From: Escherichia phage UPEC03
Sequence record: MW250785
Reading direction: 5' to 3' (one strand)
DNA: 64,000 nucleotides
The stretch's first letter is position 1, and every line of letters begins with the position of its first letter. Below are positions 21,955-28,873 of the stretch, in pieces. The notes below the pieces were generated by a model. That model made no database searches and had not been told where the DNA came from. It saw nothing but the letters and a program-made list of their open reading frames with translations. The translations under genes were made by a program, and so were the position numbers.

Positions 21955-22497
21955 ATGTCTTCAATGATGAATCGCTGGTCGGGCGTGATAACTTCGACTA
22001 TCAAAAAGGATTTGGTGAAGGTTGAGACAAAACCAAAGCCAGTAGAATCGGAAACGGTATCCCCGAAAAAGGTTCAAACTTTGGTATCCCTCGATCCTGC
22101 TGAGTTAGAACACCGCCGCCGTGCAAAACAAATTGAATTCGATCTGCGTGTCGCTCGTTCATACAACAGTAAAAACGATGATGCGCGTAACCGCAACCTT
22201 CAATTTGCTCTGACGTTAAGCGACTGGGCGAAGTTAATGAGTGAACCCGTATGTTCTTACTCCGGCAGACCGTTTAGCAATAAAGGCGGTTGCTCTGACT
22301 CCCGAACAATGGAACGAATCAACGCTTCTCTGGGGTATACGGTTGAAAACACGATCGCAGTAACCAGCGCCGCGAATAGCGAGAAATCAAATCTCGATGC
22401 GTTTATGAAGGGTTCTGTGATCCTTCCAGAAGTAAAACTGAAACTGTTACGCAAAGCTGCGTATCAAATTGAAAAACAACTGAAAATCAAAGGTTAA
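21955..22497 (+). CDS. HNH-like (His-Me finger-type) domain protein
   Basis: CSYSGRPF…ERINASLGYTVENTIAVTSAANSEKSN resembles HNH core. Confidence 0.35.
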   Translation: MSSMMNRWSGVITSTIKKDLVKVETKPKPVESETVSPKKVQTLVSLDPAELEHRRRAKQIEFDLRVARSYNSKNDDARNRNLQFALTLSDWAKLMSEPVCSYSGRPFSNKGGCSDSRTMERINASLGYTVENTIAVTSAANSEKSNLDAFMKGSVILPEVKLKLLRKAAYQIEKQLKIKG

Positions 22498-22500
22498 ATT

Positions 22501-23547
22501 ATGTTTGTGAAATATTCTTCTCTGACTAACCATTATGAAGGTAAATTCATCAATGGTGTGATCATGAATGGTTTTACTGGTTGTGTGTGGGTTGCGCGTG
22601 AAAAGATCCACGGGGCTAATTTTAGCCTGATTACCTCGGACGGTATCAAAGTCATTCCGGCAAAACGTAGCGGTGAAATTCTCCCTGCTGAACAGTTCTA
22701 CGGTTGTGAACCAGTAGTTGCAAAATACTCCGAACCTGTTCGTAAGCTGTGGGAAATTTTAGCAAATACCTGTGAATATAAGGAATATGCTGATACTGGT
22801 TCTTTGGTTGTTCAGGTATACGGCGAATTTGCGGGGCGTGGTGTTCAGAAAGATGTTGACTACGGCGAAAAAGATTTCTACGTATTTGATATCCGCGTTA
22901 ATGGTCAATTCCTCCCTGATAACGTTGTTGCAAATTACGCTGTTGCTGTTGGCCTGAAAATGGCTCCACTGCTGGCATACGGTACGTTTGACGAGATCCG
23001 CGCATTGCCTATCACCTTTGATTCGGTGGTTAACCTGGCGAACTCCGGTGCGATCCCTGCAAAGAACGGTGTTGAACCTGAGTTCAAAAACTTCATGATG
23101 CTGAAAGATGATGAAGGTGAGAACATCGCAGAAGGTTTCGTGATGAAGCCTGTTCAACCCGCTTTCATGCCGAACGGTGAACGTGTTGCAATCAAATGCA
23201 AAACGACGAAGTTCACCGAGAAGAAGAACAAGCAAGCGAACCGCTTCAATGCTCCTTCTGAACTGTCAGAAACAGACAAAGTGAAGCTGAACGAATTCAC
23301 CTGCTTCCTGACTGAAAACCGTGTGAAAAACGTCCTGTCAAAAATTGACAGCGCGAATCTCACCGCGAAAGATTTCGGTCGCGTGATGGGGCTGACGGTA
23401 CAGGATGCGCTGGAAGAAATCGAACGTAACTACGGACCTTTCCTGGAACAGTTCGAAAATCCAACGCTGGCGAAGAAAACCTTCACTAACGAAGCGTCAA
23501 ATCTGGTTCGTGAGAACTGGGGCGCAATCCTGAACAATGAATTTTAA
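22501..23547 (+). CDS. rnlB: RNA ligase 2 (RnlB/Rnl2)
   Basis: 348 aa; WVAREKIHGANFSL (ligase KxHG motif I), DFYVFDI, VAIKCK, GRVMGLTVQDALEE match recalled T4 Rnl2. Confidence 0.92.
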   Translation: MFVKYSSLTNHYEGKFINGVIMNGFTGCVWVAREKIHGANFSLITSDGIKVIPAKRSGEILPAEQFYGCEPVVAKYSEPVRKLWEILANTCEYKEYADTGSLVVQVYGEFAGRGVQKDVDYGEKDFYVFDIRVNGQFLPDNVVANYAVAVGLKMAPLLAYGTFDEIRALPITFDSVVNLANSGAIPAKNGVEPEFKNFMMLKDDEGENIAEGFVMKPVQPAFMPNGERVAIKCKTTKFTEKKNKQANRFNAPSELSETDKVKLNEFTCFLTENRVKNVLSKIDSANLTAKDFGRVMGLTVQDALEEIERNYGPFLEQFENPTLAKKTFTNEASNLVRENWGAILNNEF

Positions 23548-24118
23548 ATCTGTTCTCGAAAACGCAAAAACGGCTACCCTGATCGGTAGCCGTGAACCCC
23601 CTGAACGTATCGCGAGTATAGCCATAAAGATTGGACGTGCTTTAAGTGATCGGGGGATCTTCGCTTACTCTGGTGGTGCTCCTGGAATGGATAGCCATTT
23701 CATGTTTGACTACTCACCAGAAAGACGGCGTATAATCCTCCCTGAGAACGGTTTTAACGGGTTGTATTCGAATGGTAAGGATATCATCGACTATACAGAA
23801 TACGACACGTACAAAGCCGCTGACGAAGCGAGAAAGGTAGCTGGACACTTCGACAACCAAAACGAATGGACACAACGCCGATACGCTCGCAATTCAATGC
23901 AGGTATTAACCGAAAACCTGGACAAACCTACAGATTTTGTTCTATTCTGGGCGGTAGAGAAAGATTTTTGTGTTAAAGGTGGTACTGCGATTGCTGCAAG
24001 GCTTGCCAGATTGTATAAAGTTCCAACGTTCAACCTTTGGAATCAAAACGTTCTGGATGAAGTCTGCGATACTTTAGGGATTAACACTAAACCTCCTACT
24101 CTGGATTTTCTCTGGTGA
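23537..24118 (+). CDS. DprA/Smf-like (SLOG Rossmann) domain protein
   Basis: GSREPPE…IGRALSDRGIFAYSGGAPGMDSHF resembles DprA GSR…SGGAxGxDxxxH motif. Confidence 0.4.
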   Translation: MNFKSVLENAKTATLIGSREPPERIASIAIKIGRALSDRGIFAYSGGAPGMDSHFMFDYSPERRRIILPENGFNGLYSNGKDIIDYTEYDTYKAADEARKVAGHFDNQNEWTQRRYARNSMQVLTENLDKPTDFVLFWAVEKDFCVKGGTAIAARLARLYKVPTFNLWNQNVLDEVCDTLGINTKPPTLDFLW

Positions 24119-24650: not shown

Positions 24651-24678
24651 TTGACGGGAGTTATGAGTGTGGTAATAT
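24651..24678 (+). promoter_or_regulatory. Sigma70-like early promoter TTGACG-N16-TAATAT
   Basis: A-rich upstream, shared spacer block TTATGAGTGTG. Confidence 0.55.
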
Positions 24679-24718: not shown

Positions 24719-24970
24719 ATGGAAATCAAATTAGTACCTACTTGCGCTGGCTACTGCTTGGCACTGAATGGTGTAGCACACAACGGTAAAGGCTTACGGG
24801 CTAACGTTGAAGCAATGCTGAACGAACTGGGTGCGGTTTATGAATATGATGACGTTGCAACCAGCGTTAAAATCATAAGCCTTGAAAAAGATGGTGTTAA
24901 CTGTGCGGGTTGGTGGGATTGCTACATCGACTATAGCGACAACCGGGTCTTCTTACTGACCAGCAATTAA
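24719..24970 (+). CDS. Hypothetical small protein
   Basis: 83 aa ORF downstream of TTGACG…TAATAT promoter. Confidence 0.5.
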   Translation: MEIKLVPTCAGYCLALNGVAHNGKGLRANVEAMLNELGAVYEYDDVATSVKIISLEKDGVNCAGWWDCYIDYSDNRVFLLTSN

Positions 24971-24979
24971 GGATCGAAC

Positions 24980-25444
24980 ATGTTTGGAATGAATGAGTGT
25001 TCAGAAGCGGAAGCGCTCGAAGATTGGGCTGACTTTGATGACCTTGATCTCGATAATGAAGATGGAGAATTCTTCTGTGTTGGGCGCGGGGTTGAAAGAA
25101 CAAAGCGTGAACTTCGAAGCCGTTTAGCAATGGGGCGTACTGTTGGATCTGGAAAGAAACAACAAGTTAAATATTCCGATGGTTCGATTCGAAATGAAAC
25201 GGTTGTCAAAGAAGTAAAGGGGCGTGTCATTACGTCCGAGCGGCAGAAGGACATCAAACAATTGTACGATGTTGCAAAAGCCGCTAAAGTAGGAACCATG
25301 ATCACTTGTCCTACGTGCAAAGAGTTGCACAAGAAGACGACATATCATAAGGTGTTCTGCTCTAATGGTAAAAAATCCAGGAAAGACTGTAAGAGTAAAT
25401 ACTGGAACACGATCCATCCAGAACGGTTGGATCGTATATTTTAA
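24980..25444 (+). CDS. Hypothetical protein with CxxC zinc-ribbon
   Basis: 154 aa ORF; acidic N-terminus, CPTCKELH…C. Confidence 0.5.
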   Translation: MFGMNECSEAEALEDWADFDDLDLDNEDGEFFCVGRGVERTKRELRSRLAMGRTVGSGKKQQVKYSDGSIRNETVVKEVKGRVITSERQKDIKQLYDVAKAAKVGTMITCPTCKELHKKTTYHKVFCSNGKKSRKDCKSKYWNTIHPERLDRIF

Positions 25445-25466: not shown

Positions 25467-26900
25467 ATGCAAAAATTTAATGAACTGAATAGCCTGATCA
25501 CCTCAACTGATTCCTATAAAGTGTCCCACTGGTTGCAGTATCCACAAGGCACTGATGCAGCGATGTTCTATATTGAATCTCGCGGTGGTAAGTTTGATGA
25601 AGTAGTAACCGCTGGCGTTAACTTCGTTGCGCGGGTTCTTGCTGAACCAATTACCATGAAACAAGTTGAGTTGGCACGGGTACTTTACCGTAAGCACTTT
25701 GGGAAAGAGATTTTCAACTACAAAGGGTGGAAGAAGATCGCAGAACTGGGTTATGTCCCTGTTACTTTCCGTGCGATCCCAGAAGGTACGGTTGTTCCGG
25801 TTAAAAATGCCGTTGCGACTGTGTACGCCGAACGTGAATTCTCATGGGTGGCTGGGTGGCTGGAGACAATGACGATTCGCGGTATCTGGTATCCGTCATC
25901 TGTAGCAACGCTATCGCGCGAGTGTAAAAAGGTTCTGGCTCATTACCTTGATATGACTTCTGACCTGACTGGTGAAGCATATAACATCACACTGGGTACA
26001 CGTCTGCATGATTTCGGGGCGCGTGGCGCGACCTCTGCTGAATCTGCTGGTATTGGTGGGCTGGCACACCTCTATAACTTCATCGGGACTGATACCGTTG
26101 AAGGTATGATTATGGCAATCAGTCTGTTTGCGGACTATCAAACTCTGTTTGACGAAGTTGAAAACGTCGAAGCAATCGGTGTTTCAATTCCGGCTCGCGA
26201 ACATTCGACTACGATTTCCTACGGTAAAGAGAACGAAGACGAAGCATACAAAAACAGCATCGAAATGTTCGGTACAGGGTTCTACGCTTGTGTGTATGAT
26301 TCCTGGGACTATAAAGGCGCTGTAGATCGCATCGCTGAATATAAAGAGCAAATCATTGCTGCGGGTGGTACTCTGGTTGTTCGTCCTGATTCCGGTGATA
26401 TGATTGATAACATCATGTACACCCTGCGTAAACTGGGCGAAATCTTCGGATACACCGTAAACAGCAAAGGTTATAAAGTTCTGCATAATTCAGTTCGAAT
26501 CATCCAGGGCGACGAGATCCACGGGCCTGAAACAATCAACCGTGTGTTAAGTTGGATGGAAGCGAACAAGTGGGCGAGTGAGAACATCGCGTTCGGTATG
26601 GGCGGCGGTTTGCTGCAAGAAGTTACCCGCGACACTCAAAAGTATGCTGAAAAACTGTGCGCTATCCGCGTGAATGGTGTGTGGAAAGGTGTTTACAAAT
26701 GCCCGAAAGGTTCCGAATGGAAACAGAGTAAGAAAGGTTTGCTGATGACCATCACTAACGGTGTGGAATTCAAAACAATCGACACTCTGGAAACTGAGAT
26801 TCCTGACGGGTGGCGTGATGCGATGATTACGTATTACGACAACGGTGTATTAAACACCTCCGATACAGTAGGGGTTATCCGTGAGCGAGCAAGGATTTAA
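25467..26900 (+). CDS. nadV: Nicotinamide phosphoribosyltransferase (Nampt/NadV family)
   Basis: 477 aa; N-terminal …TDSYKVSHWLQYP… signature and overall length typical of Nampt; phage NadV is known from KVP40-type T4-like phages. Confidence 0.85.
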   Translation: MQKFNELNSLITSTDSYKVSHWLQYPQGTDAAMFYIESRGGKFDEVVTAGVNFVARVLAEPITMKQVELARVLYRKHFGKEIFNYKGWKKIAELGYVPVTFRAIPEGTVVPVKNAVATVYAEREFSWVAGWLETMTIRGIWYPSSVATLSRECKKVLAHYLDMTSDLTGEAYNITLGTRLHDFGARGATSAESAGIGGLAHLYNFIGTDTVEGMIMAISLFADYQTLFDEVENVEAIGVSIPAREHSTTISYGKENEDEAYKNSIEMFGTGFYACVYDSWDYKGAVDRIAEYKEQIIAAGGTLVVRPDSGDMIDNIMYTLRKLGEIFGYTVNSKGYKVLHNSVRIIQGDEIHGPETINRVLSWMEANKWASENIAFGMGGGLLQEVTRDTQKYAEKLCAIRVNGVWKGVYKCPKGSEWKQSKKGLLMTITNGVEFKTIDTLETEIPDGWRDAMITYYDNGVLNTSDTVGVIRERARI

Positions 26901-27189
26901 TATCCGCGCCAACGATAACGGATCAGTAGTCTTCTACAACAATCAGCCCCTTGTCGCTCGCAAGGGGCTTTTTTGTAAGTTGGTGGGCTACGGGTTCAAG
27001 TTGGAACAGGTGGACAACGCGACACTAAAAGAGGTTGTTCGAATTGCTTATCTGCTGAAAGATAAAAAAGATGAACACCGTGCTATTGCAATGCTTGAGA
27101 AATTAGGCGAAAATTATTGCTTCGTGGTGAATCGTGGGTATAAGTACGAAACGATCGCCTTATTTGAGAAAGGACTTGGTGAATTATGA
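26881..27189 (+). CDS. Hypothetical protein
   Basis: 102 aa ORF with GTG start overlapping nadV 3' end. Confidence 0.45.
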   Translation: MSEQGFNIRANDNGSVVFYNNQPLVARKGLFCKLVGYGFKLEQVDNATLKEVVRIAYLLKDKKDEHRAIAMLEKLGENYCFVVNRGYKYETIALFEKGLGEL

Positions 27190-28025
27190 TTACCACAATC
27201 AAAGAAGGGGTTGACCTCCATTTAGGCGACTCCGTAAAGCTGATTAAACAGCTTGAATCTGGTTCTGTTGACTTGACCATAACTTCGCCTCCGTATGACA
27301 ACTTGCGCCATTATAACGGCTCTGGTGATGTCTGGGGTGAACACGTATGGAAAGAGTTGATATCGGAACTGTACCGCGTTACCGCTCCTGGTGGTGTGGT
27401 TGTGTGGGTTGTGGGTGACGCGACTATCAACGGTAGTGAAACGGGTACATCTTTCCGTCAAGCCTTGTACGCGATCGAACAAGGTTTTCGGTTGCATGAT
27501 ACGATGATCTATCACAAAACCGCTCTACCGAAGAACCATAACCGATACGAACAGGACTTTGAATACATGTTCGTGTGGACAAAAGGCGCACCAAAAACAT
27601 TCAACCCGATCCGCATTCCGTGTAAGTTCCCTGAAAAGGAAACCGCACGACAAAACAGCTACTTTTCCGAAACCAACGAAAAGAACCGTTCAGCCCGTTC
27701 CGGTAAGAAACGTAAACCTGTTGGCAAGGATAAAATTAAGGGTAATATCTGGTATTACGCTGTAGGGCGCAATCACTCAACGAAGGACGAGATTGCATTC
27801 AAACACCCAGCAATATTTCCTGAACAACTGGCAGAAGATCACATTAAAACGTGGACGGTTGAAGGGGACTTGGTTCTTGATATTTTCTCTGGTTCTGGTA
27901 CAGTTATGAAAATGTCGATACTAACCAACAGACGGTTCAAAGGCTTCGAACTGATGGAGAATTATTATCACGATTCTATTCTTCGTGTTCAGCCATACGT
28001 TAACAATCTGGAATCTTTTCTATGA
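27186..28025 (+). CDS. DNA amino-methyltransferase, beta-class (N4-cytosine or N6-adenine)
   Basis: Motif IV TITSPPY near N-terminus, motif I DIFSGSGT near C-terminus (beta permutation); the SPPY variant is more typical of N4C-MTases. Confidence 0.8.
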   Translation: MITTIKEGVDLHLGDSVKLIKQLESGSVDLTITSPPYDNLRHYNGSGDVWGEHVWKELISELYRVTAPGGVVVWVVGDATINGSETGTSFRQALYAIEQGFRLHDTMIYHKTALPKNHNRYEQDFEYMFVWTKGAPKTFNPIRIPCKFPEKETARQNSYFSETNEKNRSARSGKKRKPVGKDKIKGNIWYYAVGRNHSTKDEIAFKHPAIFPEQLAEDHIKTWTVEGDLVLDIFSGSGTVMKMSILTNRRFKGFELMENYYHDSILRVQPYVNNLESFL

Positions 28026-28873
28026 GTTATTTGGGTGTTATCCCGTATACAGGTAACAAGCAATCGCTATTGCCTGAACTCTTCAAGCTGTTCCCCGAAA
28101 GAAGTTCATACATGCGTTTCATTGATTGTTTTTGCGGTGGTCTTAGTGTGTCGTTAAACGTCCCTAAACCCGTTCTAAGCAACGATTATGATAAGACGCT
28201 TATTGATATGTATGAGCGTCTTAAAACGCTTCCTGACCTGTCTCCGGTGCGAGAATTGATTGCATCGAAGGGACTGGGGAAAGACAAGAAAGAAGAGTAT
28301 CTGAAATTCCGTGATGAATACAACCAGAATAAAGATCCTTTATGGCTCTATGTCCTGATCCTGCATTCATTCAGCAACGTTAACCGGACAAACGACAAAG
28401 GCGACTTCAACGCTAATTTTGGATGCCGGACGCTCAACGATGCAACAGTAAAACGCTTTGAACATTTCAAAAAGAATGTGAAAGGCATTGAGTTTTCCAG
28501 TGGTTCATTCCGTGACATTGATATCTGTGAAAATGATTTCGTGTATTGCGATCCTCCGTATCTGATCACTGATGCGGTGTATAACAAATTCTGGAACGCA
28601 GATCACGAACGCGAGTTATATGCTTTCCTTGACTCCCTGCATGAGCGGGGTATTTGGTTTGGTTTGTCCAACGTGACTCACCATGCCGGAAAACAAAATG
28701 ATACCCTGATTGAATGGATGCAGAAATACCGCGTTCATAATCTGGATAAAAAGTATCTGTTAGGCCAGCATACCGACTCTTACGAGCAAAACAAAACGCA
28801 AGAAGTCTACGTGTGCAACTACCAGAAACGCGACGTAAATACATTCCCTTTAACACTGAACGATTTAATGTAG
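28022..28873 (+). CDS. dam: DNA adenine methyltransferase Dam (T4 Dam-like)
   Basis: IPYTGNKQSLLPEL, FIDCFCGGLSVSLNV, DFVYCDPPYLIT match recalled T4 Dam. Confidence 0.92.
   Translation: MSYLGVIPYTGNKQSLLPELFKLFPERSSYMRFIDCFCGGLSVSLNVPKPVLSNDYDKTLIDMYERLKTLPDLSPVRELIASKGLGKDKKEEYLKFRDEYNQNKDPLWLYVLILHSFSNVNRTNDKGDFNANFGCRTLNDATVKRFEHFKKNVKGIEFSSGSFRDIDICENDFVYCDPPYLITDAVYNKFWNADHERELYAFLDSLHERGIWFGLSNVTHHAGKQNDTLIEWMQKYRVHNLDKKYLLGQHTDSYEQNKTQEVYVCNYQKRDVNTFPLTLNDLM

Follow-up and report, generated by a model that had tools for sequence, protein, structure and literature searches.

The gene at 25467..26900 on the + strand of the UPEC03 window, by which we mean the whole 64,000-nucleotide stretch of Escherichia phage UPEC03 analysed here (record MW250785), very likely encodes the Nampt half of the known NARP2 pathway, with its partner gene natV outside the window, at a distance of ~72 kb on the circular map. 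The window covers about 36% of a ~178-kb RB43-like T4-type phage genome (Straboviridae, Pseudotevenvirus), and the apparent anomaly of a nadV gene without a partner arises because only a 64-kb slice of this 178-kb genome was in view. According to the NARP paper, NARP2 consists of an Nampt and an Nmnat encoded in the same genome, so that co-occurrence rather than adjacency defines the pathway; the Nampt turns nicotinamide and PRPP into NMN, the Nmnat combines NMN with ATP to yield NAD+, and of the phages with a Nampt of the KVP40 type, 94% encode an Nmnat as well.

The first enzyme of this pathway, NadV, is represented in the window by an open reading frame (ORF) of 477 aa with an ATG start, and inspection of the sequence places a GGAG ribosome-binding site 9 nt 5' of the start codon. 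The protein matches Pfam NAMPT_N over residues 10-93 (E=2.4e-23) and NAPRTase over residues 179-426 (E=7.9e-38), passes the curated cutoff of 405 bits for NCBIfam PRK09198 with a full-length match of 459.8 bits, and matches PHROG 448, 'nicotinamide phosphoribosyl transferase', with E=2.8e-164. Among solved structures it aligns end to end with the bacterial enzyme 7yqo (E=2.4e-106) and with human NAMPT (E=1e-85). For the human enzyme, we take Tyr18 and Phe193 to stack against nicotinamide, Asp219 to set specificity for nicotinamide versus nicotinate and His247 to be autophosphorylated, and we take Arg196, Arg311, Asp313, Gly353, Asp354, Gly383-385, Arg392, Lys400, Lys415 and Lys423 to be further functional residues. 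When these catalytic positions were mapped onto NadV by alignment, 16/16 were conserved: human Y18, F193, R196, D219 and H247 correspond to Y17, F183, R186, D209 and H246 of the phage protein, R311, D313, G353 and D354 to R306, D308, G348 and D349, and G383-385, R392, K400, K415 and K423 to G379-381, R388, K396, K411 and K419, with identical residues throughout. Phage NadV thus has the same substrate-binding residues and autophosphorylated His as cellular NAMPT (Xanthomonas 7yqo; human 2gvg/3dgr), from which it differs in being virus-encoded and in lacking the ~10-residue vertebrate insertion after about residue 40. The ORF, the family matches (Pfam, PRK09198 and PHROG 448) and the catalytic residues bear out the claim of the original prediction that a full-length nicotinamide phosphoribosyltransferase is encoded here.

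Membership in the wider family leaves two enzymes to be told apart, and the classification as Nampt or Namat, which the original prediction had put forward as a check, came out as Nampt both by identity and by tree. NadV is 49.2% identical to KVP40 NadV (E=1e-144), 48% to its counterpart in Aeromonas phage PX29 and 38.5% to that of Stenotrophomonas phage YB07, and only 26.5-30% identical to three Adps-linked Namats (REP8, Tyson and phiPsa315). A neighbour-joining tree groups it with KVP40, PX29 and YB07, and the Namats form a clean separate clade. Given this contrast in identity and the split in the tree, we place NadV, on its sequence, in the Nampt subfamily and not among the Namats. In all three of the Namats examined, Ser takes the place of the second glycine in the GGG loop (NadV G380).

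Were NadV instead a Namat, its place would be at the second step of NARP1, the direct conversion of ADPR-PP and nicotinamide to NAD+, and it would need an Adps partner in place of an NMNAT. The two enzymes are homologous, carry the same annotation and have nearly all catalytic residues in common, and the NARP paper describes a weak side activity of the KVP40 Nampt on ADPR-PP. We nevertheless regard this reading as almost certainly wrong and have ruled it out: beyond the distance of NadV from the Namat clade, tblastn with the REP8 and Tyson Adps proteins found no Adps/Prs-like gene in the 64-kb window or in the whole genome of Enterobacter phage HK6, a close relative (best E ~0.2), and the HK6 annotation names no Adps or Prs gene either. 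The same paper, moreover, labels the Nampts of the close relatives Cronobacter phage GAP161, Escherichia phage RB16 and Klebsiella phage KP15 'Nmnat-associated' rather than Adps-associated (its Table S2), and found no phage with NARP1 and NARP2 together. Compared with NARP1 as known from Bas63/SpbetaL1, and here through REP8, Tyson, phiPsa315 and C11, NadV has a homologous phosphoribosyltransferase fold, the same annotation and the same NAD+ product, but Namat uses ADPR-PP made by an adjacent Prs-like Adps.

With NadV classified as a Nampt, the expected partner is an NMNAT. No NMNAT, Nudix, NadR or Prs/Adps gene was found in the 64-kb window, where tblastn with HK6 NatV, KVP40 NatV, KVP40 NadR, a phage Nudix protein and two phage Adps/Prs proteins as queries gave only matches with E>0.5. 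Within the window, this agrees with the earlier observation that no NMNAT/Nudix or PRPP-synthetase-like partner lies near nadV; the absence reflects the 64-kb limit of the window and is not a property of the phage.

Close relatives with complete genomes provide the missing part. The nadV region is 98.8% identical at the nucleotide level to Cronobacter phage vB_CsaM_leN and to HK6, many phages of the group match the first 25 kb of the window at 97.7-98.3% identity, and the best NadV match in INPHARED is 99.6% identical at the protein level. A 66-nt stretch of nadV had no exact match in IMG/VR, nor did the protein collections searched contain a NadV identical in sequence. From alignment offsets, the window corresponds to ~165.5-177.8 kb plus 1-51.6 kb of the HK6 map. 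Reading the whole HK6 annotation identified natV at 118782..119837 of that genome, encoding a protein of 351 aa annotated as a "bifunctional protein". The N-terminal part of this protein matches the cytidylyltransferase-like domain CTP_transf_like (E=1.6e-8), its C-terminal part matches NUDIX (E=5e-14), and its full length matches NCBIfam PRK05379 (bifunctional NMN adenylyltransferase/Nudix hydrolase) with E=3.4e-75; since the score of 253.5 bits is below the 397-bit equivalog cutoff, we treat the protein as a diverged member of that family. Over 348 aa it shares 40.2% identity with KVP40 NatV (E=3e-76), and it contains the HNGH nucleotidyltransferase motif. The Nudix box did not fit a strict regular expression, and by eye it reads G-x5-E-x7-RE-U-x-EE-x in both HK6 NatV and KVP40 NatV, with the final Gly replaced by Arg in HK6 NatV and by Asn in the active KVP40 protein.

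The two genes travel together. Comparison of the best 60 NadV records with the best 60 NatV records in the phage collection showed 58/60 in common. The two unshared NadV records are a 61.6-kb partial genome and one record probably falling just outside the best 60 for NatV, and the two unshared NatV records are both from leE, whose NadV probably ranks just below the best 60. Every complete relative among the best 60 NadV records carries natV, and in the 58 shared records the circular distance between nadV and natV is 69.2-74.6 kb, with a median of 72.5 kb. Counts by identity run in parallel for the two proteins, with 62 NadV records at ≥90% and 117 at 60-80%, and 61 NatV records at ≥80% and 115 at 60-80%. 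On the HK6 map the expected natV site lies roughly 46 kb past one end of the window and 67 kb past the other; because this is outside the 64 kb analysed, we infer the presence of natV in the genome of UPEC03 itself, strongly, from its relatives. A bifunctional NMNAT/Nudix protein had already been described as common in pseudo-T-even phages in the 2015 literature.

These data bear directly on the idea that UPEC03 has an orphan Nampt, has no natV and leaves the conversion of NMN into NAD+ to host NadR or NadD. Such phages do exist, about 6% of those with a KVP40-type Nampt having no detectable Nmnat according to the NARP paper, and no NMNAT gene was found within the 64-kb window; however, each complete relative among the best 60 has natV at the conserved distance of ~72 kb, the window is 98-99% identical to natV-carrying genomes, and the natV site on the HK6 map falls well outside the window. 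We therefore consider an orphan enzyme very improbable. The original prediction had argued from the lack of a canonical partner to dependence on host NadR/NadD, a step that the co-occurrence of natV in 58/60 of the best NadV records does not support. It had also proposed searching the rest of the genome for natV or Prs-like genes and had counted a canonical partner elsewhere against its own reading: natV is present in every complete relative checked, and no Prs-like gene was found in HK6.

Separation of nadV from natV is normal for NARP2. In KVP40, natV (KVP40.0162) occupies 94507-95532 and nadV (KVP40.0264) 138214-139707, and because this prototype of the pathway itself has a 43-kb gap between the two genes, their non-adjacency in the UPEC03 group is not unusual. 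KVP40.0065, a 481-aa protein that we had considered as the KVP40 NadV, was rejected because it matches a different gene of the window, and the true nadV is KVP40.0264. At the other extreme, natV in YB07, a Stenotrophomonas phage of the genus Menderavirus, lies directly 5' of nadV in an apparent operon; its NadV belongs to the Nampt clade and its NatV is 31% identical to the HK6 protein, but the genes adjoin there and are ~72 kb apart here, where each of them is accompanied by separate promoter-like and terminator-like signals.

The pair in the phage group of UPEC03 is, accordingly, already known NARP2, since orthologues from the group are listed in the defining paper, among them the GAP161 NadV, which is 99.0% identical to that of UPEC03. 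Its closest well-studied counterpart is KVP40, which has the same two enzymes (49% identity for NadV and 40% for the NatV of UPEC03 relatives, with the same NMNAT plus Nudix architecture). Both phages are T4-like Straboviridae in which the genes are dispersed, by 43 kb in KVP40 and by about 72 kb here, but they differ in genus and host, the present group being Pseudotevenvirus on Enterobacteriaceae. KVP40 additionally encodes NadR, PnuC, a Sir2/CobB protein and a second short NAPRTase-family ORF. With KVP40 NadR as query, neither the window nor HK6 yielded a NadR-like NR kinase/NMNAT; HK6 NatV alone was matched, through its N-terminal nucleotidyltransferase motif (E=0.002). A reading of the HK6 annotation found no PnuC-like transporter. 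NARP3 of Bas30, which combines a PnuC-like transporter with a NadR-like enzyme, is another phage route to NAD+ against NAD+-depleting immunity, but starts from imported nicotinamide riboside.

Signals around nadV are consistent with a transcription unit of its own. A consensus scan identified a sigma-70-like promoter at 24651..24678 (+ strand), consisting of TTGACG, a 16-nt spacer and TAATAT with a TG before the -10 element (extended -10), and a terminator-like hairpin at 26945..26979 (+ strand), with a 10-bp stem of which 6 pairs are G-C followed by a T run, although the regional totals of such promoter and terminator matches were not significantly above those in shuffled sequences. The predicted promoter lies in an 87-nt gap 5' of an 83-aa ORF and precedes that ORF, a 154-aa ORF and nadV; we regard it as a candidate start of the nadV transcription unit, and a 'putative middle promoter' is annotated at the equivalent position in KP15. 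The hairpin begins 45 nt after the nadV stop codon, inside a 102-aa ORF, and is probably the 3' boundary or an attenuator of the nadV transcript. Compared with KP15, the stem-loop and the start of the T run differ by one substitution, which is in the loop, and the flanks are much less identical. In HK6, natV lies between two predicted signals, a sigma-70-like promoter scoring 11/12 and a terminator hairpin of 13 bp. nadV and natV would then form two independent early-type units, each bounded by a promoter and a terminator, and with a sigma-70-type promoter each unit could be expressed early by host RNA polymerase.

The small ORFs packed around nadV were also considered as partners. The 83-aa ORF (24719..24970, + strand), which is probably co-transcribed with nadV, belongs to PHROG 7372 and is 71% identical to its KP15 homologue. 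The 154-aa ORF (24980..25444, + strand), directly 5' of nadV and with a Cys-rich C-terminus, belongs to PHROG 7424 (E=1.2e-87), and the 102-aa ORF (26881..27189, + strand), which has a GTG start and overlaps the nadV stop by 20 nt, belongs to PHROG 7497 and is 69% identical to its KP15 homologue. All three PHROG families are of unknown function. As originally described, the 154-aa and 102-aa ORFs are unknowns: neither had a match in Pfam or NCBIfam, and their PHROG matches were to families of unknown function only.

Tight packing with nadV, probable co-transcription and identities of 62-71% in the Slopekvirus KP15 might suggest that one or more of the 154-aa, 102-aa and 83-aa ORFs encode non-canonical functional partners of NadV, as had been proposed for the first two. 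In KP15, however, the whole block from srd/RNA ligase 2 to dam is syntenic, so that the persistence of the three ORFs beside nadV reflects this block synteny and not a specific linkage. None of the three stands beside nadV in PX29, KVP40 or YB07, and the 154-aa ORF has a sole KVP40 homologue (29% identity, E=3e-8) that lies about 12 kb from KVP40 nadV. The ORFs also have no recognisable enzymatic domain, and the canonical pathway is complete without them. On this lack of co-conservation we rejected them as partners of NadV, a role that we find scarcely credible.

A further neighbour is a DprA-like/SLOG-fold gene (PHROG 768) at 23537..24118, which directly follows RNA ligase 2 and lies 1.35 kb upstream of nadV. 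In YB07, phiPsa315 and C11, a SLOG homologue and a Nampt-family gene lie no more than a few kb apart. SLOG and RNA ligase genes are both found near a Nampt-family gene in NARP2 phages of Pseudotevenvirus and Slopekvirus and in the NARP1 phages C11 (Pakpunavirus) and phiPsa315 (Otagovirus), with SLOG only in the Menderavirus YB07, and in Xoo-sp13 the SLOG gene sits beside a Nudix gene and near a YbiA/NADAR-like gene. Members of the SLOG family occur in 1,102 phage records, and many of these come from groups that do not appear in the match lists for NadV and NatV. We rejected the SLOG protein as a dedicated NARP2 partner, the family being far wider than the NARP pathways, and a search of the literature on SLOG/YspA together with NAD found nothing directly relevant. 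The link between SLOG and NARP is at most a loose association, and it is improbable, in our judgement, that the nadV neighbourhood is a loose recurrent module with SLOG and RNA ligase as opposed to an arbitrary accessory region. If the SLOG protein did bind or process nucleotides derived from NAD+ or ADP-ribose, both NARP pathways would have in it a hitherto unrecognised accessory.

In the proposed NARP2 pathway, NadV would join nicotinamide and PRPP to form NMN, which the N-terminal NMNAT domain of NatV would adenylate with ATP to give NAD+. The C-terminal Nudix domain of NatV could split ADP-ribose into AMP and ribose-5-phosphate, the latter returning to host PRPP synthetase; the corresponding domain of NatV in KVP40 reportedly hydrolyses ADP-ribose. 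Operating during infection, the pathway would raise NAD+ and could overcome defences that deplete it, type I Thoeris and DSR2 among them. The specificity of the UPEC03 enzymes, the timing of their expression and their effect on defence we infer by analogy, the KVP40 enzymes being biochemically validated and those of the RB43 group known here from sequence; the NARP paper showed PRPP preference and NAD+ production for the KVP40 proteins only.

The same biochemistry would also be compatible with a mainly metabolic benefit, in which NAD+ serves replication and nucleotide metabolism in any host. NARP2 raises NAD+ even in defence-free cells, because it starts from PRPP, and nadV lies among the nucleotide-metabolism genes nrdC, nrdD, nrdG and RNA ligase 2. 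Against this stand the findings of the NARP paper that defence by type I Thoeris and by DSR2 is lost in the presence of the KVP40 pair, which also raises NAD+ in infection and rescues an engineered phage, and its argument that the use of PRPP is costly for a phage making DNA. We consider a mainly metabolic benefit a serious alternative, although an unlikely one, and NAD+ reconstitution, as originally suggested, is supported as the most likely role.

As a discovery this result carries little weight, and its lesson is mainly methodological. Tens of kilobases often separate the NARP2 genes, and the annotation of natV varies between "bifunctional protein", "cytidyltransferase" and "hypothetical protein"; with genes so dispersed and annotation so uneven, "orphan Nampt" calls made from partial windows or from adjacency give false leads. 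For the phages themselves, by analogy with KVP40, the presence of NARP2 in therapy candidates against Enterobacter, Cronobacter and Klebsiella would predict some resistance to NAD+-depleting defences.

A strong terminator-like hairpin followed by a T run lies on the + strand at window positions 26945..26979, 45 nt after the nadV stop codon and within the downstream 102-aa ORF. Between the window and Klebsiella phage KP15, this hairpin is nearly invariant, with its sole change in the loop, while the flanking coding sequence has strongly diverged. Third-codon positions within the hairpin are likewise conserved, which suggests that selection acts on the RNA structure. Within NadV itself, the codon at about 26604..26606 specifies G380, the central glycine of the GGG loop; its human counterpart, G384, binds the PRPP 5'-phosphate. 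This residue is glycine in all five Nampt-clade proteins and serine in all three Adps-linked Namats that were aligned, and, in this tiny sample of 5 + 3 proteins, it may discriminate between PRPP and ADPR-PP.

Just downstream of nadV, two DNA methyltransferases are encoded back to back on the + strand, an N6_N4_Mtase family protein (27186..28025) followed by a Dam-type D12 class enzyme (28022..28873). The Dam homologue in KP15 has 86% identity, and the first methylase had no match in the fetched KP15 syntenic stretch, so it appears from this comparison to be a variable member of the nadV block. Upstream, the 154-aa ORF (24980..25444, +) is rich in cysteine towards its C-terminus (CPTC...C...C), which hints at a small zinc-binding domain; the ORF's KVP40 homologue is weak (29% identity, E=3e-8, L010:9940-10278 in a fetched KVP40 locus) and does not adjoin the KVP40 nadV. 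Further upstream, a 180-aa ORF (21955..22497, +) matches the Srd-like PHROG 'decoy of host sigma70' (E=1.8e-73); HNH/endonuclease VII PHROGs match the same region, and the ORF is without a Pfam match.

A DprA-like/SLOG-fold gene (23537..24118, +; PHROG 768, with a weak Pfam DNA_processg_A match) is located 1.35 kb upstream of nadV, directly after RNA ligase 2. Homologues were located in four loci from other phages (L013:6810-7313, L022:4135-4566, L024:4792-5373 and L023:5085-5561). A Nampt or Namat gene lies a few kb from the SLOG homologue in Menderavirus YB07, Otagovirus phiPsa315 and Pakpunavirus C11, and the phiPsa315 and C11 clusters also contain Adps and RNA ligase. In Xoo-sp13, the SLOG homologue adjoins a Nudix gene, with a YbiA-like gene nearby. 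The association with Nampt/Namat genes is nevertheless loose, because the SLOG family is present in 1,102 phage records.

The NAD-related gene set of KVP40 is far larger than that of the RB43 group (L010:18630-19523, L005:39099-40079, L010:20-685 and L008:23288-24028 in the fetched KVP40 loci). Among its members are KVP40.0259, which is a second, short ORF of the NAPRTase family located ~3 kb upstream of nadV, a Sir2/CobB protein, and NadR together with PnuC, a pair similar to the now-named NARP3. A search of HK6 for a homologue of NadR found none.

Lastly, labels for natV are very inconsistent across public records (HK6 locus L003:18782-19837; database matches H86-H145 and H218-H277), ranging over 'bifunctional protein', 'cytidyltransferase', 'hypothetical protein', 'ADP-ribose pyrophosphatase' and 'protein of unknown function'. 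Text-based searches for the Nampt partner in these genomes would often overlook it.
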